Below, in pieces: positions 37,064 to 43,362 of a stretch of DNA of 64,000 nucleotides. How positions within the stretch are numbered: the first letter of the stretch is position 1; every line of letters starts with the position of its first letter. The translations under genes were made by a program, and so were the position numbers. Under the pieces are notes generated by a model that was not told the DNA's origin, did not search any database, and saw only the letters and a program-made list of their open reading frames with translations. The DNA is from an uncultured Fibrobacteraceae bacterium (GTDB lineage Bacteria; Krumholzibacteriota; Krumholzibacteriia; LZORAL124-64-63), in assembly GCA_964461255.1 (NCBI GenBank), contig CAYWTR010000003.1, forward strand, positions 91,144 to 155,143, read 5' to 3'.

Positions 37064-37783
37064 ATGCACGAGCAAACTGCTCGCTTTTGTTCCCGGCCGT
37101 GGCCGTCCTCCCTGCGCGCGACGCTGGCGACGATCGGCTGGCTGGGCCTGCTCGGCACCACGCCCTGGCTGCTGGCCGAACCGCAGGTGCCGTCCTGGCT
37201 GGCTCCGGCCCTGGCGCGCCAGGCCAGCGCCCCCCTTCGCGGGGATTACCCTGACAGCGTGCACGCCCGCCTGCAGGAGGACTTCGCGGCGGAGATTGCG
37301 TTCGCCGCCGATGCGCATCTGCGCACCCTGGCCACCGCCCACCGCCAGCCTGACCGCCTGCTGGCGCTGCCGTTCTTCGCGCTGCTGGCAGCCGCGCCGT
37401 GGCTGCCGTCGCGCGGTTTCGCCGCCCGCGGCCGCGCGGTGCGGTCGGCGCTCCTGGCGCTGATCCCCTTGCAGCTGCTGTTCCACGGCACGTCGGTGCA
37501 GCCCCTGCTGGGCGCCTGGATCGACCTCTGGGGAAACCTGACGCAGGCCTTGCTGACGATCCAGATCCTGGCGGATCGTTTCTTCACCGCGCGCGTCGAC
37601 CAGGCGGTCGTGCTCTTCTTCGCCGAGCAGTCGCCGCTGATCGAGGCCGCGCTGCTGCGTCAGCTCTGGGCGCTGCGCGCGGCAGATCTGCTGCTGGCGG
37701 CAGTCGAGGCGGCGCTGTTGTTGTGGCTCGCGCGCTGGGTTCGTCGGGCCGAGGGCGCGCCGCCAACAACTCCGACAGCGTGA
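37064..37783 (+). CDS. Hypothetical membrane protein
   Basis: ATG with a GAGG RBS, several hydrophobic segments and host-like codons; no family recognised. Confidence 0.6.
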   Translation: MHEQTARFCSRPWPSSLRATLATIGWLGLLGTTPWLLAEPQVPSWLAPALARQASAPLRGDYPDSVHARLQEDFAAEIAFAADAHLRTLATAHRQPDRLLALPFFALLAAAPWLPSRGFAARGRAVRSALLALIPLQLLFHGTSVQPLLGAWIDLWGNLTQALLTIQILADRFFTARVDQAVVLFFAEQSPLIEAALLRQLWALRAADLLLAAVEAALLLWLARWVRRAEGAPPTTPTA

Positions 37784-38735
37784 CCAGGCGGATGCCTGCC
37801 GCCTGCAGACGCGGCAGTTCCACCTCGAGCGCCGCCAGCGTCGCGGCATAAGGATGCCCGATGCCGATCGCGGCGCCCGTCCGCCGGGCCGCGAGCGCCA
37901 GGCGCTGCAGCCGCTGCGCCACAACGGACGCGTCGGGCCGACCCTCGTCCAGGAACAGGCGGTTGCTCAGGCACGGAACGCCGTGGCGCGCGGCGGCCGC
38001 CGTCGCGGCCGAGCGTGGCGTGGTCATGCTGTCCAGGAAGAACAAGCCGCGCATGGCCAGCGCCGCCATCAAGGCGTCCATGACCGCGGGATCGGCCGTG
38101 GCGCGGCTGCCCATGTGGTTGCTGACGCCGGCGGCCTCGGGCAGATCGTCGAGCGCGGCCGCGAGCCGCTCCGCGACCTCGCCGGCACCCATGCCGCAGA
38201 GCACCGCCCCTCGGCCGGGATCGACCTCGGGATAGCCTTCCGGCTCCATGGGCAGGTGCAGGATGACCTCGCGGCGCGCGGCCGCGGAGGAGCGTTCGCG
38301 GGCCGCCTGCGCGAAGCGACGGGTGTGGCGCTGGCCCGGCAGGATGGCCAGCGTCAGCGGCGCGTCCAGCGCCAGCAGCGCCCGGGTGACCTCGTTGTCG
38401 TGATGCCCCCAGTCATCGATCACCACCGCCAGCGCCGGTCCCTCCGGGTCCCGCGGCGCCTCCGGCCCGGGCGCCCGCAGGCCGTCCGAGGTGCGCGCGC
38501 GCTCTGCCTCCGAGCGGTCCGCCGCGCGCCGCTCTGCGACCGCGCCGCCCCCGCCGCTCGCCGCGGGCGGCGCCGCGGACCTCTCTTCCCGCGCGCACCC
38601 GCGCGCGAAGAACACGCCGGCGCCGAGCAGCAGCGCGGCGAGCCCGATCCAGGCCAGGCGGGGCCGGACCGCAAGGCGGCGGCGGCGCGGCCGGCGGAGG
38701 CGCCGGGCCCGGCTGGGGCTGGCTTTGGAATTCAC
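37584..38735 (-). CDS. Divergent polysaccharide deacetylase family protein (YibQ/DUF610)
   Basis: LAVVIDDWG, LTLAILP, EVILHLPMEP, GVSNHMGS, FFLDSMT, FLD and AIGIGHP; N-terminal TM anchor. Start uncertain. Confidence 0.88.
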   Translation of the reverse strand: MNSKASPSRARRLRRPRRRRLAVRPRLAWIGLAALLLGAGVFFARGCAREERSAAPPAASGGGGAVAERRAADRSEAERARTSDGLRAPGPEAPRDPEGPALAVVIDDWGHHDNEVTRALLALDAPLTLAILPGQRHTRRFAQAARERSSAAARREVILHLPMEPEGYPEVDPGRGAVLCGMGAGEVAERLAAALDDLPEAAGVSNHMGSRATADPAVMDALMAALAMRGLFFLDSMTTPRSAATAAAARHGVPCLSNRLFLDEGRPDASVVAQRLQRLALAARRTGAAIGIGHPYAATLAALEVELPRLQAAGIRLVTLSELLAARPRPDEPSARATTTAPPRLPPAADLPRAAPRADAAARPRSAATARRRRARPPGRRAR

Positions 38736-38857
38736 CCGTCGCGCTCCCTGCCAAGGCGGCGGAACGACCGCCCCGGCCGTGCTCACGGCGGCAGCCGAGG
38801 AAAGGGGAGCCCCTCCGGACTCCCCCTGGGCGGTGGCCTGCGGCGCGCGCGCCGCTG

Positions 38858-39469
38858 CTAGTTGCTCTCGGTCAGGTCGCGCTGTCCGCGCAGCTGGTAG
38901 AACGACCTGGTCACTCCGTTGACCACCGAATCGCGGGCGACCACGTAGAATTCCTGCTGGCCGCGGACGCTGATCCGGCTGTTGTCGCTCTTGATGAAGT
39001 TGATCTCGACCTGGTACAGCTTGCGTTGCGAGTTCGGGAATTCCGGATCGGTCGGGCCGGTCTGCGACCAGGGCCCGAGCGGGTTGAACAAAGGCATCTG
39101 AATCTGGGAGATGCCGAGCACCTGCGCCCCCGTGTGATCCTGGCCGGGCCTGCCGCTGAAGATATTGTCCGCGATCTCCAGCTCCTGGTCACGGTTGTAG
39201 GGATCGGTCGGGAAGAGCGCCCTCTGGATATCCTCGCTGGTGAACAGGAAACGGAAGTCGGTGTGCAGGACATCGCGGTACTTGGCGACGTCCATCTCCG
39301 TGTAGGCCGCCTTGAAGTTTTCGATCAGCTGATCCGGGGTGTCGGGGAACGGCACCGGCGGCGGAGGCGGACGCCGATCGTCGCCGCCGTCGTCCGGCGA
39401 GAAGATGCAGCCCGCCGCGCCCAGCGCAAGCAGGGCGGCGGCCGCCATCACGGTCATCCTGGCATTCAT
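38858..39469 (-). CDS. Lipoprotein of unknown function (NTF2-like fold inferred)
   Basis: Lipoprotein signal ending LGAAGC; PDTPDQLIENFKAAY...D...Y.DVL..DF.F. Confidence 0.75.
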   Translation of the reverse strand: MNARMTVMAAAALLALGAAGCIFSPDDGGDDRRPPPPPVPFPDTPDQLIENFKAAYTEMDVAKYRDVLHTDFRFLFTSEDIQRALFPTDPYNRDQELEIADNIFSGRPGQDHTGAQVLGISQIQMPLFNPLGPWSQTGPTDPEFPNSQRKLYQVEINFIKSDNSRISVRGQQEFYVVARDSVVNGVTRSFYQLRGQRDLTESN

Positions 39470-39569: not shown

Positions 39570-40427
39570 CTAGCCACCCCCCCCTGCCAGGGCCCCGCGC
39601 AAGGCGCCGAGCGTGGGCAGCAGGGCGCCGTCGCCGGGATCGGCTTCCCCTTGCACGTCGCGCCATTCGGTCATGTACCAGAAAGAGCCCTCGAGCGCGT
39701 AGCGGAAGAAGGCCCGTCCCCGATACCGCGTGGCGGTCGTCTGCCCGGGGCTGGTCACCGCAACGGCGTAGATGAATTCCCATTCCGCCTCGGTGCCGGT
39801 CGGTTGTTCGGCAAATACCGTGACGGTCCTTAGCGCCGATTCGACGTTGCTGACGTTGTTGAAAAGCGCATTGATGAAGCCGGCCTCGCGGTCTCGGGTC
39901 CAATTGTCCCAGTCGACGGCCGGGTAATCGCTCAGGGTCTGACCGTCCGGTTCGTAGCGGAAGCCGGAGGATATCTGGTCCAGGTAGCCCACCGCGTCGC
40001 GCGCCCGCAGGGCGATGTCCAGGTTCTCCATGACCGCTTCCGGGCTGATCTTGGGACTGTAGGTCCGCGTGCCGCCGGTCGGCGGTTCGGCCGAGCGCGG
40101 CTCGAACAGGCAGCCTCCCGCGCCCAGACAAAGCAGCAGGCACAGGGCCGCGCCGCGCCGGCGGGCGCTCTCCGCCCGCCCGCCGGCGGGAATCCGCCTC
40201 GCCGCCGCCCGGATCGCAAGGCCCGGGTTGTGCCGCGAAGATTGTGTCCGGATCGGCCGGGTGACAAACCGCCTTGGTGTGCTTGGGCTTGCCGTTGCAG
40301 AGTCCGATCCTCCGGTTCCGGCCCTTCCCGAAGCCAACTCATTGTGCCGAAATGGATTGTGCGGTTTCTCCTCGCCGGCGACACCCTGCCGGAAACAATC
40401 TTCGCGGCACAAGTCAAGGCCCGGCAT
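39570..40427 (-). CDS. Lipoprotein paralog of 38858-39469, carrying a 66-codon in-frame insertion near its N-terminus
   Basis: The ATG at 40427 overlaps the upstream stop (TGATG). LCLLLCLGAGGC lipobox-like motif; SPEAVMENL..A...D...Y.D.I...F.Y aligns with the neighbouring lipoprotein. Confidence 0.7.
   Translation of the reverse strand: MPGLDLCREDCFRQGVAGEEKPHNPFRHNELASGRAGTGGSDSATASPSTPRRFVTRPIRTQSSRHNPGLAIRAAARRIPAGGRAESARRRGAALCLLLCLGAGGCLFEPRSAEPPTGGTRTYSPKISPEAVMENLDIALRARDAVGYLDQISSGFRYEPDGQTLSDYPAVDWDNWTRDREAGFINALFNNVSNVESALRTVTVFAEQPTGTEAEWEFIYAVAVTSPGQTTATRYRGRAFFRYALEGSFWYMTEWRDVQGEADPGDGALLPTLGALRGALAGGGG
40227..40414. mobile_element. Putative MITE/palindromic element (188 bp)
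   Basis: 24-bp inverted repeats at 40228-40251 and 40389-40412 (1 mismatch), flanked by a 10-bp direct repeat CAAGGCCCGG at 40217-40226 and 40415-40424. About 61% GC by hand count (114/188), visibly lower than the flanks. Confidence 0.65.
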
Positions 40428-42526
40428 CAGAACCTCCAATTCAGCGACACATCCGCGTCCCAGTAATCGGCGTTGGTGCGCTGGACGTTGGGGCCGTAGG
40501 CGTTGTACTTGCGCACCGCGGCCTTCAGTTCCCGGCCGCCGCCGCTCCATTTCTTGTTGAAGGTGCCGCCGAGCCAGACCTTGCCGCTGCGCAGGTCGGT
40601 GGTGGTGACCCGACGGCCGAAGGTGTCCTTGATGTCCTTCGTGCGGTCGCTGGCGCCTTCGATCTTGAAGCTGTCGTTGATCTTGTAGGCTAGCCCGAAA
40701 TCGATGGTCGAAATGCGCTGCTCCAGGTCGCGGCTGTAGAAGTCATTGCCGCTGGCGTCGGTGAATACACGCGTGGCGTTGAAGCGCGCGTTGTAGTCGT
40801 GGCGCACGCTCAAGGTCAAACGTTGGTTGGGGCGTATGGTCACGCGCGTGTTCAGGTTTCCGCGCTTGTTGTAGTTGTCGCTGACGCTGACCCCCGCCAG
40901 GCCCGAATAGAGGTAGTCGGTGTACTCGATCGATACGCGGAAATCCTGCTGCAGGCGCAGCCAGCCGGCAATCGGCCAGGAATAGCTGGGTACCACCTCG
41001 TAGGTCTCCCGCACGCTGTTGTTGGCCGACCGGCTGCTGCGGATGGCCACGTCCTCGATGTGGCGCGCCGAGAAAGTCATCGTCGGCTTGAAACCGCCGG
41101 GCAGATCCGAGGTCAGACGCGCCACGAAGCTGCTCTCGTAACGGTCGCGGTCGTTCTCGTTGAACTGGCGCTCGGCGATGTCCTGCTGCAGACCCGTGGT
41201 CCAGTTGAAATTCCATTCGGTGTTCTTGAAGAGCCGCCGCCGCCATTCGAACGTGAAATCGCGCCGCTTGGTGTACTGCCGTCCGCGGGCGGCGGTGGCG
41301 CCGCGGAACACCTGGTCGTCCCAGCGCCAGCCATAGACGTAGCTGACGCGCAGGGAGTCGGCTCCGACCCTCGCGCCCGCGCTCAGATCGACCCTGTCCT
41401 GAAGCCGCTCGCGGAAGCCGGCGTTGCTGGCCCGGAAGCTGTTCTCCTCGACATCGCGCCCCAGATTGGCCGCCAACCTGAACCGGCGATGCCGGTACTG
41501 CTGGCGCAATTCGTAGGAAAGCGCCTCGTTGGTCTCGAGTTCCTGCACGATCTTCTCGCTCACCCCGACCGTGTCGACCAGGCCGTTGGCGTTTCGCCGG
41601 TAGTCCAGGTACTTCTTGCTCAACGATCCTCGCCGGATCGACAGGAAACCGTCGTATCCGCCCAGTGTGACGCCGGCCCGGCCCGCCAGCGAATCCTGGC
41701 TCGCCGAGGAGGGATTCGTCTCTTCGCCGAGCGAGCGGCGGCCGCTGTTGGCGCCGCTGTAGATGGTGGAACTGATGCGCAGGCCCGGCACGGGCGAATA
41801 GCGGCTGCGCAGGGCGGCGTTGAGATTGGATTCGCTGAAGTTGTTGCGCTGGCCCAGGCTGGCCCCGCGCTGGTCGTCCAGCGAGCCGCTCAGGCGCACG
41901 GCGTGGCGCACGGGCCCGGTGCGGGTCCCCAGGCTGTCGAGATCCACGGACGCCTGCTTGAAATCGCGCTTGTTCACGTTGGCGATGCCCGCCGTGTTGA
42001 CGGTGCGATCTTCGCTCCAGTTGTTGGTCATGCGCAGCGACGTGCTGAACCAGCGTCCTTGCGGATCGATGTAGGTCAAGTTGCCGTCGCGACGTTCGAC
42101 GGTCTTGTCCTGCTTGCGATAGGACTCGGTCGAGTAGTTCAGGTTCGCCGAGAGATTGTTCGATCCGCGCAGCAGCAACGCGTTGCGCAGCTCGCCGTAC
42201 CAGCGGACGCGGCTGACCTCGGCGCGCACCCCGACTTGAGGGTCGCGCACCCAGGACAGGATCAATCCCTGGCTTCCTTCCGCGGCTGCTCGCTGCATGG
42301 CCTCCAACAGCTCCGAACCCAGGCCGCCGGTGGCGGCCATGATGCTGTCCTCGCGCGCCGCCGCCAGGCTGTCCGCCAGGGCGCGCGCCGCGCTCTGTTC
42401 CTCGTCCTCGAACTCGTCGAACTGCGCCGCGGCCGGCCAGGCCAGCAGCGCCGCCGCCGCCAACGCCGCCAACGCAGCGCTCGCGGCCGCCGCCGCGCGC
42501 CGCCCAATCGCCCCACGGCGCCTCAC
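40427..42526 (-). CDS. Predicted outer-membrane beta-barrel protein of unknown function (699 aa)
   Basis: The GTG overlaps the rsmA stop (GTGA) with a GGGGAGG RBS. Signal peptide (LLAWPAAA|QF), alternating amphipathic strands and a C-terminal beta-signal DVSLNWRF. Confidence 0.75.
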   Translation of the reverse strand: MRRRGAIGRRAAAAASAALAALAAAALLAWPAAAQFDEFEDEEQSAARALADSLAAAREDSIMAATGGLGSELLEAMQRAAAEGSQGLILSWVRDPQVGVRAEVSRVRWYGELRNALLLRGSNNLSANLNYSTESYRKQDKTVERRDGNLTYIDPQGRWFSTSLRMTNNWSEDRTVNTAGIANVNKRDFKQASVDLDSLGTRTGPVRHAVRLSGSLDDQRGASLGQRNNFSESNLNAALRSRYSPVPGLRISSTIYSGANSGRRSLGEETNPSSASQDSLAGRAGVTLGGYDGFLSIRRGSLSKKYLDYRRNANGLVDTVGVSEKIVQELETNEALSYELRQQYRHRRFRLAANLGRDVEENSFRASNAGFRERLQDRVDLSAGARVGADSLRVSYVYGWRWDDQVFRGATAARGRQYTKRRDFTFEWRRRLFKNTEWNFNWTTGLQQDIAERQFNENDRDRYESSFVARLTSDLPGGFKPTMTFSARHIEDVAIRSSRSANNSVRETYEVVPSYSWPIAGWLRLQQDFRVSIEYTDYLYSGLAGVSVSDNYNKRGNLNTRVTIRPNQRLTLSVRHDYNARFNATRVFTDASGNDFYSRDLEQRISTIDFGLAYKINDSFKIEGASDRTKDIKDTFGRRVTTTDLRSGKVWLGGTFNKKWSGGGRELKAAVRKYNAYGPNVQRTNADYWDADVSLNWRF

Positions 42527-43362
42527 GGCGCCGCCTCCCCGGGCAGCTGCGCGGCCAGGGCGCGCAGCCCCGCCGGCGCGATCTGCTCCGGGCGCTGCGC
42601 CGGATCCAGGCCGGCGGCCGCCGCGGTGGCCGCCGCGTCCGCGGGGGTCATCCCCCAGCCCGCGCGGAGCGCACTGCCGAGCTGCTTGCGGCGGCGGGCG
42701 AACAGGGTCTTGACCACCGCGCGGTAATGCGCCAGTTCGGCCGGCGGCCAAGGCGGCCCCGCCGGCACCAGCCGCACGACGGCCGACTCCACCTCGGGCC
42801 GCGGCCAGAACACCTCTGGCGGCACGCGGCGAAGAGCGCGGATCTCGAAAAGCGCTCCCAGCAGCGCCGCCAGCACGCCGTAGGTCCGGCCGCCCGGCGC
42901 AGCGGTCATGCGCTCGGCGACCTCGCGCTGCACCATCAGAACGGCTCCTGCCAGGCCCTGGCGCCACTCAGCCAGGGCCAGCAGCACGCTGCTGGTCAGC
43001 ACGTACGGCAGGTTGCCCGCCACGACCGGCCTCGGTCCGGCGGCGTCCAGCACCGCCGGCCAATCGAGGCGAGTCAGGTCCTCCTCCAGCAGGCGGAAGC
43101 CTGGGCTGCTCCCCAGCTCGGCCCGCAGGAGCGCGCACAGCTGCCTGTCCACCTCGACCGCCGTGACCGCGGCTCCCGCCGCGAGCAACGGCGCGGCCAG
43201 CGCGCCCGCGCCGGCCCCCAATTCCAGCACCCGCGTTCCCAGCGCGAGCACCTCGGCGGCGATGGCGCGAGCCAGGTTGGCGTCGAGCAGGAAATTCTGC
43301 CCCCGCCGCTTCACCGGCCGAATGCCGTGGGCTCGCAGAAGCGCTAGCTGGCTGCGGCTCAA
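42523..43362 (-). CDS. rsmA: 16S rRNA (A1518/A1519) dimethyltransferase
   Basis: KRRGQNFL.D, VLELGAGAGAL, AVEVD, VAGNLPY, MVQREVAER, YGVL and FWPRPEVESAVV; TTG start with GGAGG. Confidence 0.95.
   Translation of the reverse strand: MSRSQLALLRAHGIRPVKRRGQNFLLDANLARAIAAEVLALGTRVLELGAGAGALAAPLLAAGAAVTAVEVDRQLCALLRAELGSSPGFRLLEEDLTRLDWPAVLDAAGPRPVVAGNLPYVLTSSVLLALAEWRQGLAGAVLMVQREVAERMTAAPGGRTYGVLAALLGALFEIRALRRVPPEVFWPRPEVESAVVRLVPAGPPWPPAELAHYRAVVKTLFARRRKQLGSALRAGWGMTPADAAATAAAAGLDPAQRPEQIAPAGLRALAAQLPGEAAP

Follow-up and report, generated by a model that had tools for sequence, protein, structure and literature searches.

Insertions of miniature inverted-repeat elements (MITEs) that keep a bacterial reading frame open are known from the Rickettsia palindromic elements (RPEs), QMITEs and ERIC (PMC10969869, PMC5896051). 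Residues added in frame to a gene have been documented for the QMITE of Coxiella burnetii and for further bacterial MITEs that lie within genes (PMC5896051), and about 10% of the prokaryotic MITEs surveyed across 183,232 genomes were intragenic (PMC11602168). In Neisseria, the hairpins of Correia elements are cut by RNase III at their repeats, which alters mRNA levels (PMC10969869). The locus described here lies in a 64-kb window (the whole stretch of DNA that was analysed) and concerns a 188-bp stretch that is very probably a MITE of an IS1-like insertion sequence (IS), inserted in the signal-peptide coding region of a lipoprotein gene. Known intragenic cases, QMITEs among them, are mostly C-terminal or mid-gene, whereas this one sits between the start codon and the signal peptide, and the papers on intragenic bacterial MITEs that were consulted describe no MITE inserted at such a position in a lipoprotein gene. 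A non-autonomous MITE had already been proposed in the first-pass annotation of the sequence, and the proposal is borne out by the arms, the flanking duplication, the ends that the element has in common with an IS and the insert-free homologues of the host protein.

The host gene occupies positions 39570 to 40427 on the minus strand and has 285 codons, 219 of them ancestral. Its product is presumed to be a bacterial lipoprotein, in which a hydrophobic core precedes a conserved, presumably lipidated cysteine (codon TGC, 40110 to 40112, minus strand). The mature domain has a predicted NTF2-like fold, modelled as a cone with a pLDDT of at least 95 and matched by Foldseek with a probability of 1.0 to many NTF2/SnoaL-like structures. 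Upstream lies a large ORF ending in ...NWRF* (40427 to 42967, minus strand), to which the lipoprotein gene would be translationally coupled by a TGATG stop/start overlap (40425 to 40429, minus strand) made of the upstream TGA (40429 to 40427) and the lipoprotein ATG (40427 to 40425). Since homologues of the upstream protein measure 701-742 aa, its translation probably begins further downstream than the first GTG. Among the host operon proteins, the sole Pfam match is Polysacc_deac_2, in the product of the fourth gene. The protein database entry for the lipoprotein is a 285-aa protein, insert included.

The inserted element runs from GTTGTGCC to GGCACAAGT (40227 to 40414, no strand assigned) and carries no transposase. 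Its terminal inverted repeats are 24 nt long, with TTGTGCCGCGAAGATTGTGTCCGG on the left (40228 to 40251, plus strand) and its partner on the right (40389 to 40412, minus strand; CCGGAAACAATCTTCGCGGCACAA on the plus strand). They are 137 nt apart and complementary at 23 of 24 positions (96%), with the one mismatch that had been noticed at first reading. The arm 24-mer is found at these two places only in the 64-kb window (0/100 shuffles). Immediately outside, 1 nt and 2 nt from the arms, lie two direct repeats CAAGGCCCGG (40217 to 40226 and 40415 to 40424, unstranded), which are the only copies of this 10-mer in the window and mark a target-site duplication, probably of 9 bp at 40217 to 40225 for the left copy. 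The background for a perfect 10-bp repeat no more than 3 nt from two points 125-500 bp apart is 2.5e-4 of window positions, and that for a 9-bp repeat in the same geometry test 6.6e-4. Two further features reported earlier were recovered as well. The degenerate third arm TTGTGCCGAAATGGATTGTGCGG extends from 40342 to 40364 (plus strand), has the orientation of the left arm and agrees with it at 19 positions, the differences being one mismatch and three indels. The inner 7-nt stem (40250 to 40310, unstranded) is formed by GGATCGG (40250 to 40256) and CCGATCC (40304 to 40310) and is absent from the minimum-energy RNA fold of the element. Neither a second copy of the element nor a transposase gene was found within the 64-kb window, in which tblastn with the family transposase described below gave nothing below E = 0.07.

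The origin of the arms emerged from an exact scan of 185,579 species genomes for their 18-nt core, which returned 43 loci. Seventeen of these, mostly from Acidobacteriota and Actinomycetota, were set aside as a coding coincidence rather than IS ends, because the 18-mer spells L-C-R-E-D-C there, a conserved C-terminal Cys motif; it forms the C-terminus of a small ORF, which we take to be probably YceD/DUF177, just upstream of an rpmF(L32)-like ORF. Elsewhere, the exact 18-mer TTGTGCCGCGAAGATTGT and a slightly diverged inverted partner bound units of ~1.21 kb (L001, L007, L027, L034 and L035), and like units are bounded by diverged arms, with 1-6 mismatches to the 18-mer, in L061, L068, L078, L079 and L081, which were reached via protein look-ups. 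Each unit has a single ORF of 365-385 aa (frameshifted in L007). When the ten IS copies are aligned, similarity ends exactly at GTTGTGCC...GGCACAAC; the copies are 50-67% identical overall, and the end downstream of the gene is their best-conserved part. It is this downstream end (IRR) that the left arm of the window element matches, while the third arm resembles upstream-end (IRL) variants such as TTGTGCCGCCGAAATTGTGTCCGG in L068. The transposase has at least 3,773 homologues, many of them on contigs of 1.2-2 kb, and a few are named IS1 family transposase by NCBI. Because the genome and metagenome scans required exact 18-20-mers, diverged copies were missed. P0090 and P0118, each present on several contigs, were considered as separate insertions and rejected as one locus sampled many times. 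Judged from these alignments, the arm in the window is the conserved end of an abundant ~1.2-kb IS1-like IS of uncultured bacteria. The earlier suggestion of a possibly undescribed family holds for the MITE group itself, which is new, but not for its ancestry, which can be traced to this abundant parent.

Besides full-length units, 12 further short copies of 116-218 bp consist of arms only. Four are from Krumholzibacteria (L005, L024, L037 and L041), six from Fibrobacteraceae (L013, L017, L020, L040 and two in L042) and two from metagenome contigs (L044 and L060). They have their arms in common and little of their internal sequence; the arm of L024 equals that of the window over all 24 nt, and most short copies, the window's included, end in ...GGCACAAG at one side. 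Both forms occur together in the MAG MFD05684.bin.2.24, which has four IS copies and two short copies (L024 and L037), and CAYQTJ01 has four short copies (L013, L020 and the two in L042). As far as sequence comparison goes, short copies and IS present the standard picture of MITEs dependent on an IS transposase. The further copies anticipated at first reading therefore exist at the level of the family, in other genomes, but not as siblings with the same interior or elsewhere in the 64-kb window: BLAST of the element against 82 loci aligned the arms only, and a search for translated siblings, with the insert's four open frames against 5.8 billion protein clusters, returned the window's own protein alone.

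The IS copy in L061 is flanked on both sides by GTTTTCTTT, 1-2 nt from its arms and thus in the same geometry as in the window. As this flank is 9 bp, the length seen in IS1, the duplication in the window is probably 9 bp too, the tenth base matching by chance. The 10-bp direct repeat first described is thus real in that it is present on both sides within 1-2 nt of the arms, but the actual duplication is probably one base shorter. No convincing repeat of at least 7 bp was found beside the ends of the remaining nine IS copies and 12 short copies, so that the 9-bp rule rests on two cases; L040 shows an imperfect 9-bp repeat (8/9) at uneven offsets, and in L027 the flanks prolong the inverted repeat instead. 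Missing duplications could reflect old copies, IS-mediated adjacent deletions or recombination between copies.

How close the parent is to IS1 was addressed at the levels of sequence and fold. Pfam gives only sub-threshold helix-turn-helix (HTH) matches to the transposase and no catalytic-domain match, and the NCBIfam model for IS1 (NF033558), which has a cut-off of 100 bits, reaches 28.4 and 22.2 bits, over the N-terminal part only. With hhalign, a 29-sequence profile aligns to E. coli IS1A InsAB' (residues 46-113 to 25-89, probability 85%, E = 5.9e-6) over the zinc finger and HTH, with no alignment past residue 113, that is in the InsB half. The AlphaFold (AF2) model of the transposase, with a pLDDT of 85, has structural matches in the cores of retroviral integrases and in the transposases of ISCth4 and Mos1, and the protein is therefore predicted to be DDE-type with an RNase-H-like core; we know of no IS1 structure that would allow the folds to be compared. 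The arm tip GGTTGTGCCGC is identical to the IS1 left end GGTGATGCTGC at 13 of 23 positions in a tip-anchored comparison (4.5e-4 for random 23-mers). The parent resembles IS1 in its size of ~1.2 kb, in the N-terminal zinc finger and HTH of its transposase, both alignable to InsA, and in the probable 9-bp duplication seen in the window and in L061. It differs in having one uninterrupted ORF of 365-385 aa rather than a programmed -1 frameshift over two ORFs, in a catalytic half that has no sequence alignment to InsB, and in that target duplications are missing from most of its copies. ISfinder lists single-ORF IS1 subgroups too. We refer to the parent as 'IS1-like' and leave strict membership of the IS1 family aside.

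Returning to the host gene, the element and one repeat copy amount to 198 bp, or 66 stop-free codons, and the 285-codon ORF reads MPGL-[DLCRED...SRHN]-PGL-AIR, continuing as PGLAIRAAARR...LCLLLCLGAGG-C, just as had been described. The duplicated target, CAAGGCCCG(G), corresponds to codons 2-5 of the lipoprotein gene. Virtual excision of the 198 bp (the window minus 40226 to 40423, with the junction GATCGCAAGGCCCGGCATCAGA) gives MPGLAIRAAARRIPAGGRAESARRRGAALCLLLCLGAGGC, a 40-residue signal peptide read from the TGATG-coupled ATG. Removal does therefore restore a plausible lipoprotein signal, as predicted, and the insert has moved the putative lipidated Cys (codon 40112 to 40110) from residue 40 to residue 106. 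The frequent presence of IS copies of this family on contigs of 1.2-2 kb, at which assemblers would break, raises the question of whether the insert could be an assembly artefact, a repeat-induced mis-join in a metagenome contig. However, a mis-join would not make a perfect 9-10-bp duplication, an intact two-armed element and an exactly restorable gene, and this explanation is extremely unlikely.

Comparison with orthologues points to the same ancestral state. A search of 5.8 billion protein clusters returned 15 homologues of the lipoprotein (46-63% identity, 195-230 aa), two of which have an organism name, both being Candidatus Krumholzibacteriia MAGs. The first-pass annotation had considered that orthologues might all carry the N-terminal extension; the 66-residue insert is missing from 15/15, their N-termini starting ~25-40 residues before a G-C-L-F-x-P-R motif that follows the hydrophobic stretch and is invariant in 16/16 sequences. 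One of them, P0016, has a longer N-terminus of its own that aligns partly over the insert columns and shares no sequence with the insert. Three orthologous loci (L073, L074/L075 and L076) have the gene order tatD, rsmA, large ORF, lipoprotein and second small protein, followed by a Polysacc_deac_2 gene in L073 and L076 (the L074 contig ends earlier), and the window shows the downstream part of this order. At the junction, L073 and L074/L075 read ...TGG-AAx-TTC-TGATG, with a TTCTGATG overlap identical to that of the window (2 of 3 distinct loci), while in L076 the lipoprotein ATG comes 2 nt after the upstream stop; none of the three has a spacer there. Because the TTCTGATG overlap is the same, the ATG at 40427 is the ancestral, translationally coupled start. 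Orthologous loci at ~60% identity have an uninterrupted junction, but the exact empty allele was not found, the predicted empty-site 22-mer being absent from metagenome_contigs; with the closest orthologues only ~60% identical, the time of insertion is not bracketed.

A true start downstream of the repeats, which had also been envisaged, is part of a reading in which the palindrome belongs to an intergenic spacer as a resident regulatory site, be it an operator, an attenuator or a processing site, and the lipoprotein begins at a non-canonical codon. From the element to the lipobox Cys, the reading frame contains no ATG, GTG or TTG, just ATC, ATT and CTG, of which the ATT at 40193 is preceded by the purine-rich GGCGAGGCGG. 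Some short family copies do lie 13-24 nt upstream of start codons, at 5 of 26 element sides against a background of 6%. This preference for start-adjacent sites was discarded as weak and explained by intergenic location, most family copies being apparently between or at the ends of longer ORFs (as judged in GC-rich loci from ORFs without gene calling). A resident site would, moreover, be at odds with the perfect flanking duplication, with arms that are IS ends, with the absence of a spacer from every orthologous locus and with an excision that recreates the TTCTGATG-coupled start of L073 and L074/L075. Nor was there any Rfam match between 39500 and 41000 at E values up to 1, or any promoter- or terminator-like site in a scan of 39900 to 40700. 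The resident-site reading, already largely refuted, is highly unlikely.

An insert that keeps 66 codons open invites the opposite idea, that the residues have been adopted as a functional N-terminal extension, a new domain or an extended signal region under selection, as has been proposed for Rickettsia palindromic elements. They are in frame, stop-free and located where a signal peptide can sometimes tolerate extra N-terminal residues. However, four of the six frames of the element are stop-free, where dinucleotide-preserving shuffles average 2.4 (P = 0.13), and there is no excess of open frames in the family, with 31 observed over 13 members and 26.5 expected. The combined chance of an outcome that is both in frame and stop-free is ~0.13, including one in three for the length, so that the open frame appears compatible with chance, a matter of luck rather than design. 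The insert is predicted to be disordered (pLDDT 43-48), no other protein among the 5.8 billion clusters has it in any of its four open frames, and the nearly identical arms suggest that the sequence still evolves in the manner of DNA repeats rather than of protein. Neither the sequence nor the structural model gives any sign of selection for the insert as a protein, and its adoption is very unlikely.

The scenario that fits best remains transposition of a MITE. The two copies of the ~20-24-nt end on the element would serve as sites for the DDE transposase of the ~1.2-kb IS1-like IS, an element common among uncultured bacteria, Krumholzibacteria and Fibrobacteraceae included. Supplied in trans, the transposase would have made a staggered cut and inserted the element at codons 2-5, duplicating the 9 (or 10) bp CAAGGCCCG(G). 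Since element and duplication add up to 198 bp with no stop in frame, the ORF would have stayed open and gained, after Met-Pro-Gly-Leu, 66 residues that are predicted to be disordered and precede the original signal peptide. Arms identical at 23/24 positions and a perfect duplication make a recent event probable; an intact mature domain says little either way about the fate of the gene.

On the coding strand, the RNA of the element folds at -101.9 kcal/mol (z = -5.45 against shuffles); the 24-bp stem of the arms closes a long hairpin and begins 12 nt past the coupled start codon. With a stable hairpin so close to the start, and the hydrophobic core and lipobox displaced 66 residues further in, the most likely main consequence would be reduced or perturbed expression of the lipoprotein, whereas any effect on export is pure inference. 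The insertion could even, with a chance somewhat short of even, have knocked out the gene in effect, the open frame being that of a young, undecayed pseudogene. The GC-rich hairpin might block coupled re-initiation or be cut by a double-strand-specific RNase, or the Sec/Lgt/Lsp machinery might miss a leader of 106 residues. The strength and position of the fold, the absence of such a leader from all 15 homologues, an open frame compatible with chance and the cleavage by RNase III of inverted repeats in Correia-element transcripts (PMC10969869) all argue for a knock-out. However, the insertion has left the start codon, coupling signal, hydrophobic core and Cys untouched, and the intact mature domain can be aligned to homologues with neither gaps nor stops, although this would also be expected if the event is recent.

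It is also conceivable, if rather unlikely, that the insertion is not a dead end, and that the 106-residue leader still delivers the lipoprotein or that the hairpin, through processing or attenuation, uncouples the lipoprotein from the outer-membrane-like upstream gene. In either case, a mobile element would have rewired a signal peptide or an operon junction in nature. Rated no higher, and separate from the fate of this gene, is the idea that the parent represents a distinct, very abundant single-ORF IS1-like group, in which an ~18-nt end is conserved among copies that have diverged to 50-60% nucleotide identity. Whichever holds, the locus offers a natural test of how far a lipoprotein signal can be extended at its N-terminus, and of how a 24-bp hairpin affects two genes that are translationally coupled. 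Annotation of metagenome-assembled genomes, in which such inserts otherwise yield mis-annotated long N-termini, can draw on the conserved arm to recognise both the IS and its derivatives.

Set against known systems, the insertion of an IS1-like MITE in this lipoprotein gene is a clean but ordinary kind of event, less special than its appearance suggests. A search of the MITE and IS literature that included Krumholzibacteria gave no paper on Krumholzibacteria among the matches listed. Like Rickettsia palindromic elements, the window element is mobile, small and palindromic and has entered a gene in frame, with the ORF of that gene kept (PMC10969869). However, RPE families are systematically ORF-compatible and lie inside folded proteins, whereas the present family has no excess of open frames, its copy in the window is in a signal peptide and its parent transposase is identifiable. 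With the Correia/NEMIS elements of Neisseria and with ERIC, it has in common a size of 100-200 bp, inverted-repeat ends of ~25 nt and the potential to form long hairpins when co-transcribed. There is, however, no sequence relation to these elements, and Correia elements duplicate TA and have their own consensus. By analogy, Correia-type hairpin processing is a plausible model for what the copy in the window may do to the operon mRNA. New with respect to these systems are the MITE group itself, the connection of this group with an IS1-like IS that is abundant and poorly catalogued, and an insertion site that separates a start codon from a lipoprotein signal peptide.

The outer arms of the window MITE (its 24-nt terminal inverted repeats) are both of the IRR type, that is, they correspond to the downstream end of the parent IS, and a third arm-like sequence at 40342-40364 is closer than they are to variants of the upstream end, IRL, such as that of the IS at locus L068. 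The window MITE may combine an inner IRL'-IRR unit of ~71 bp with an additional outer arm.

Two family members, the MITE in the window and the full IS in L061, are flanked by a target-site duplication. No convincing duplication of at least 7 bp was found among the other family copies examined, i.e. nine full IS loci (L001, L007, L027, L034, L035, L068, L078, L079 and L081) and the short-copy loci L005, L013, L017, L020, L024, L037, L040, L041, L042, L044 and L060. This extends to the IS pair L079/L081, whose members are 97% identical and lie at different sites. The short copy in L040 has only a 9-bp repeat, imperfect and unevenly offset, while the flanks of the IS in L027 (tagtctg/cagacta) prolong the inverted repeat rather than forming a duplication.

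In the full IS copy of L007 (2278-3491), a frameshift splits the transposase gene into a 259-aa and a 133-aa piece; this MAG also contains its sister copies L027 and L035, which share 91-95% DNA identity with it. Identical transposases (P0090 and P0118) are found again and again on 9-12 contigs from different samples (L061-L067 and L068-L072), always at one chromosomal site and beside the same neighbours. It follows that the IS copies of these loci are residents fixed at a single site in widespread populations rather than active multi-copy elements. Four short-copy loci (L005, L013, L042 at 2747-2871 and L060) have a copy ending 13-24 nt 5' of a start codon that has a Shine-Dalgarno-like motif; overall, 5 of 26 element sides lie at this distance upstream of a start codon, against a background of 6%. 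This placement may mean no more than that the copies are intergenic, or it may point to a function in 5' untranslated regions.

The 18-nt arm core, TTGTGCCGCGAAGATTGT, is also found encoding L-C-R-E-D-C within the C-terminal Cys motif (LCREDCxGLCxxCG) of a small ORF, presumably YceD/DUF177, directly upstream of an rpmF(L32)-like ORF, mostly in Acidobacteriota and Actinomycetota MAGs (L002, L004, L006, L008, L010-L012, L014, L019, L021, L023, L026, L029-L032 and L039). The window MITE arm, translated in the window's reading frame, likewise reads LCREDC. The matches in these ORFs were dismissed as a coincidence that inflates match counts for the arm core.

The interrupted lipoprotein has a mature part (39570-40112, minus strand) that belongs to no Pfam family and is predicted to form an NTF2/SnoaL-like cone (pLDDT of at least 95). 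Its gene belongs to a conserved order: tatD, rsmA, a large ORF ending in F, the interrupted lipoprotein, a second lipoprotein (38858-39469) and, last, a Polysacc_deac_2 protein (37584-38786). The large upstream ORF (40427-42967, minus strand), for which there was no Pfam match, has 846 codons counted from the first GTG, whereas its homologues have 701-742 aa; its first ~100 codons, rich in Arg, Gly and Ala, are probably untranslated. Its C-terminus reads ...NWRF, an ending that resembles the C-terminal signal of outer-membrane barrels.
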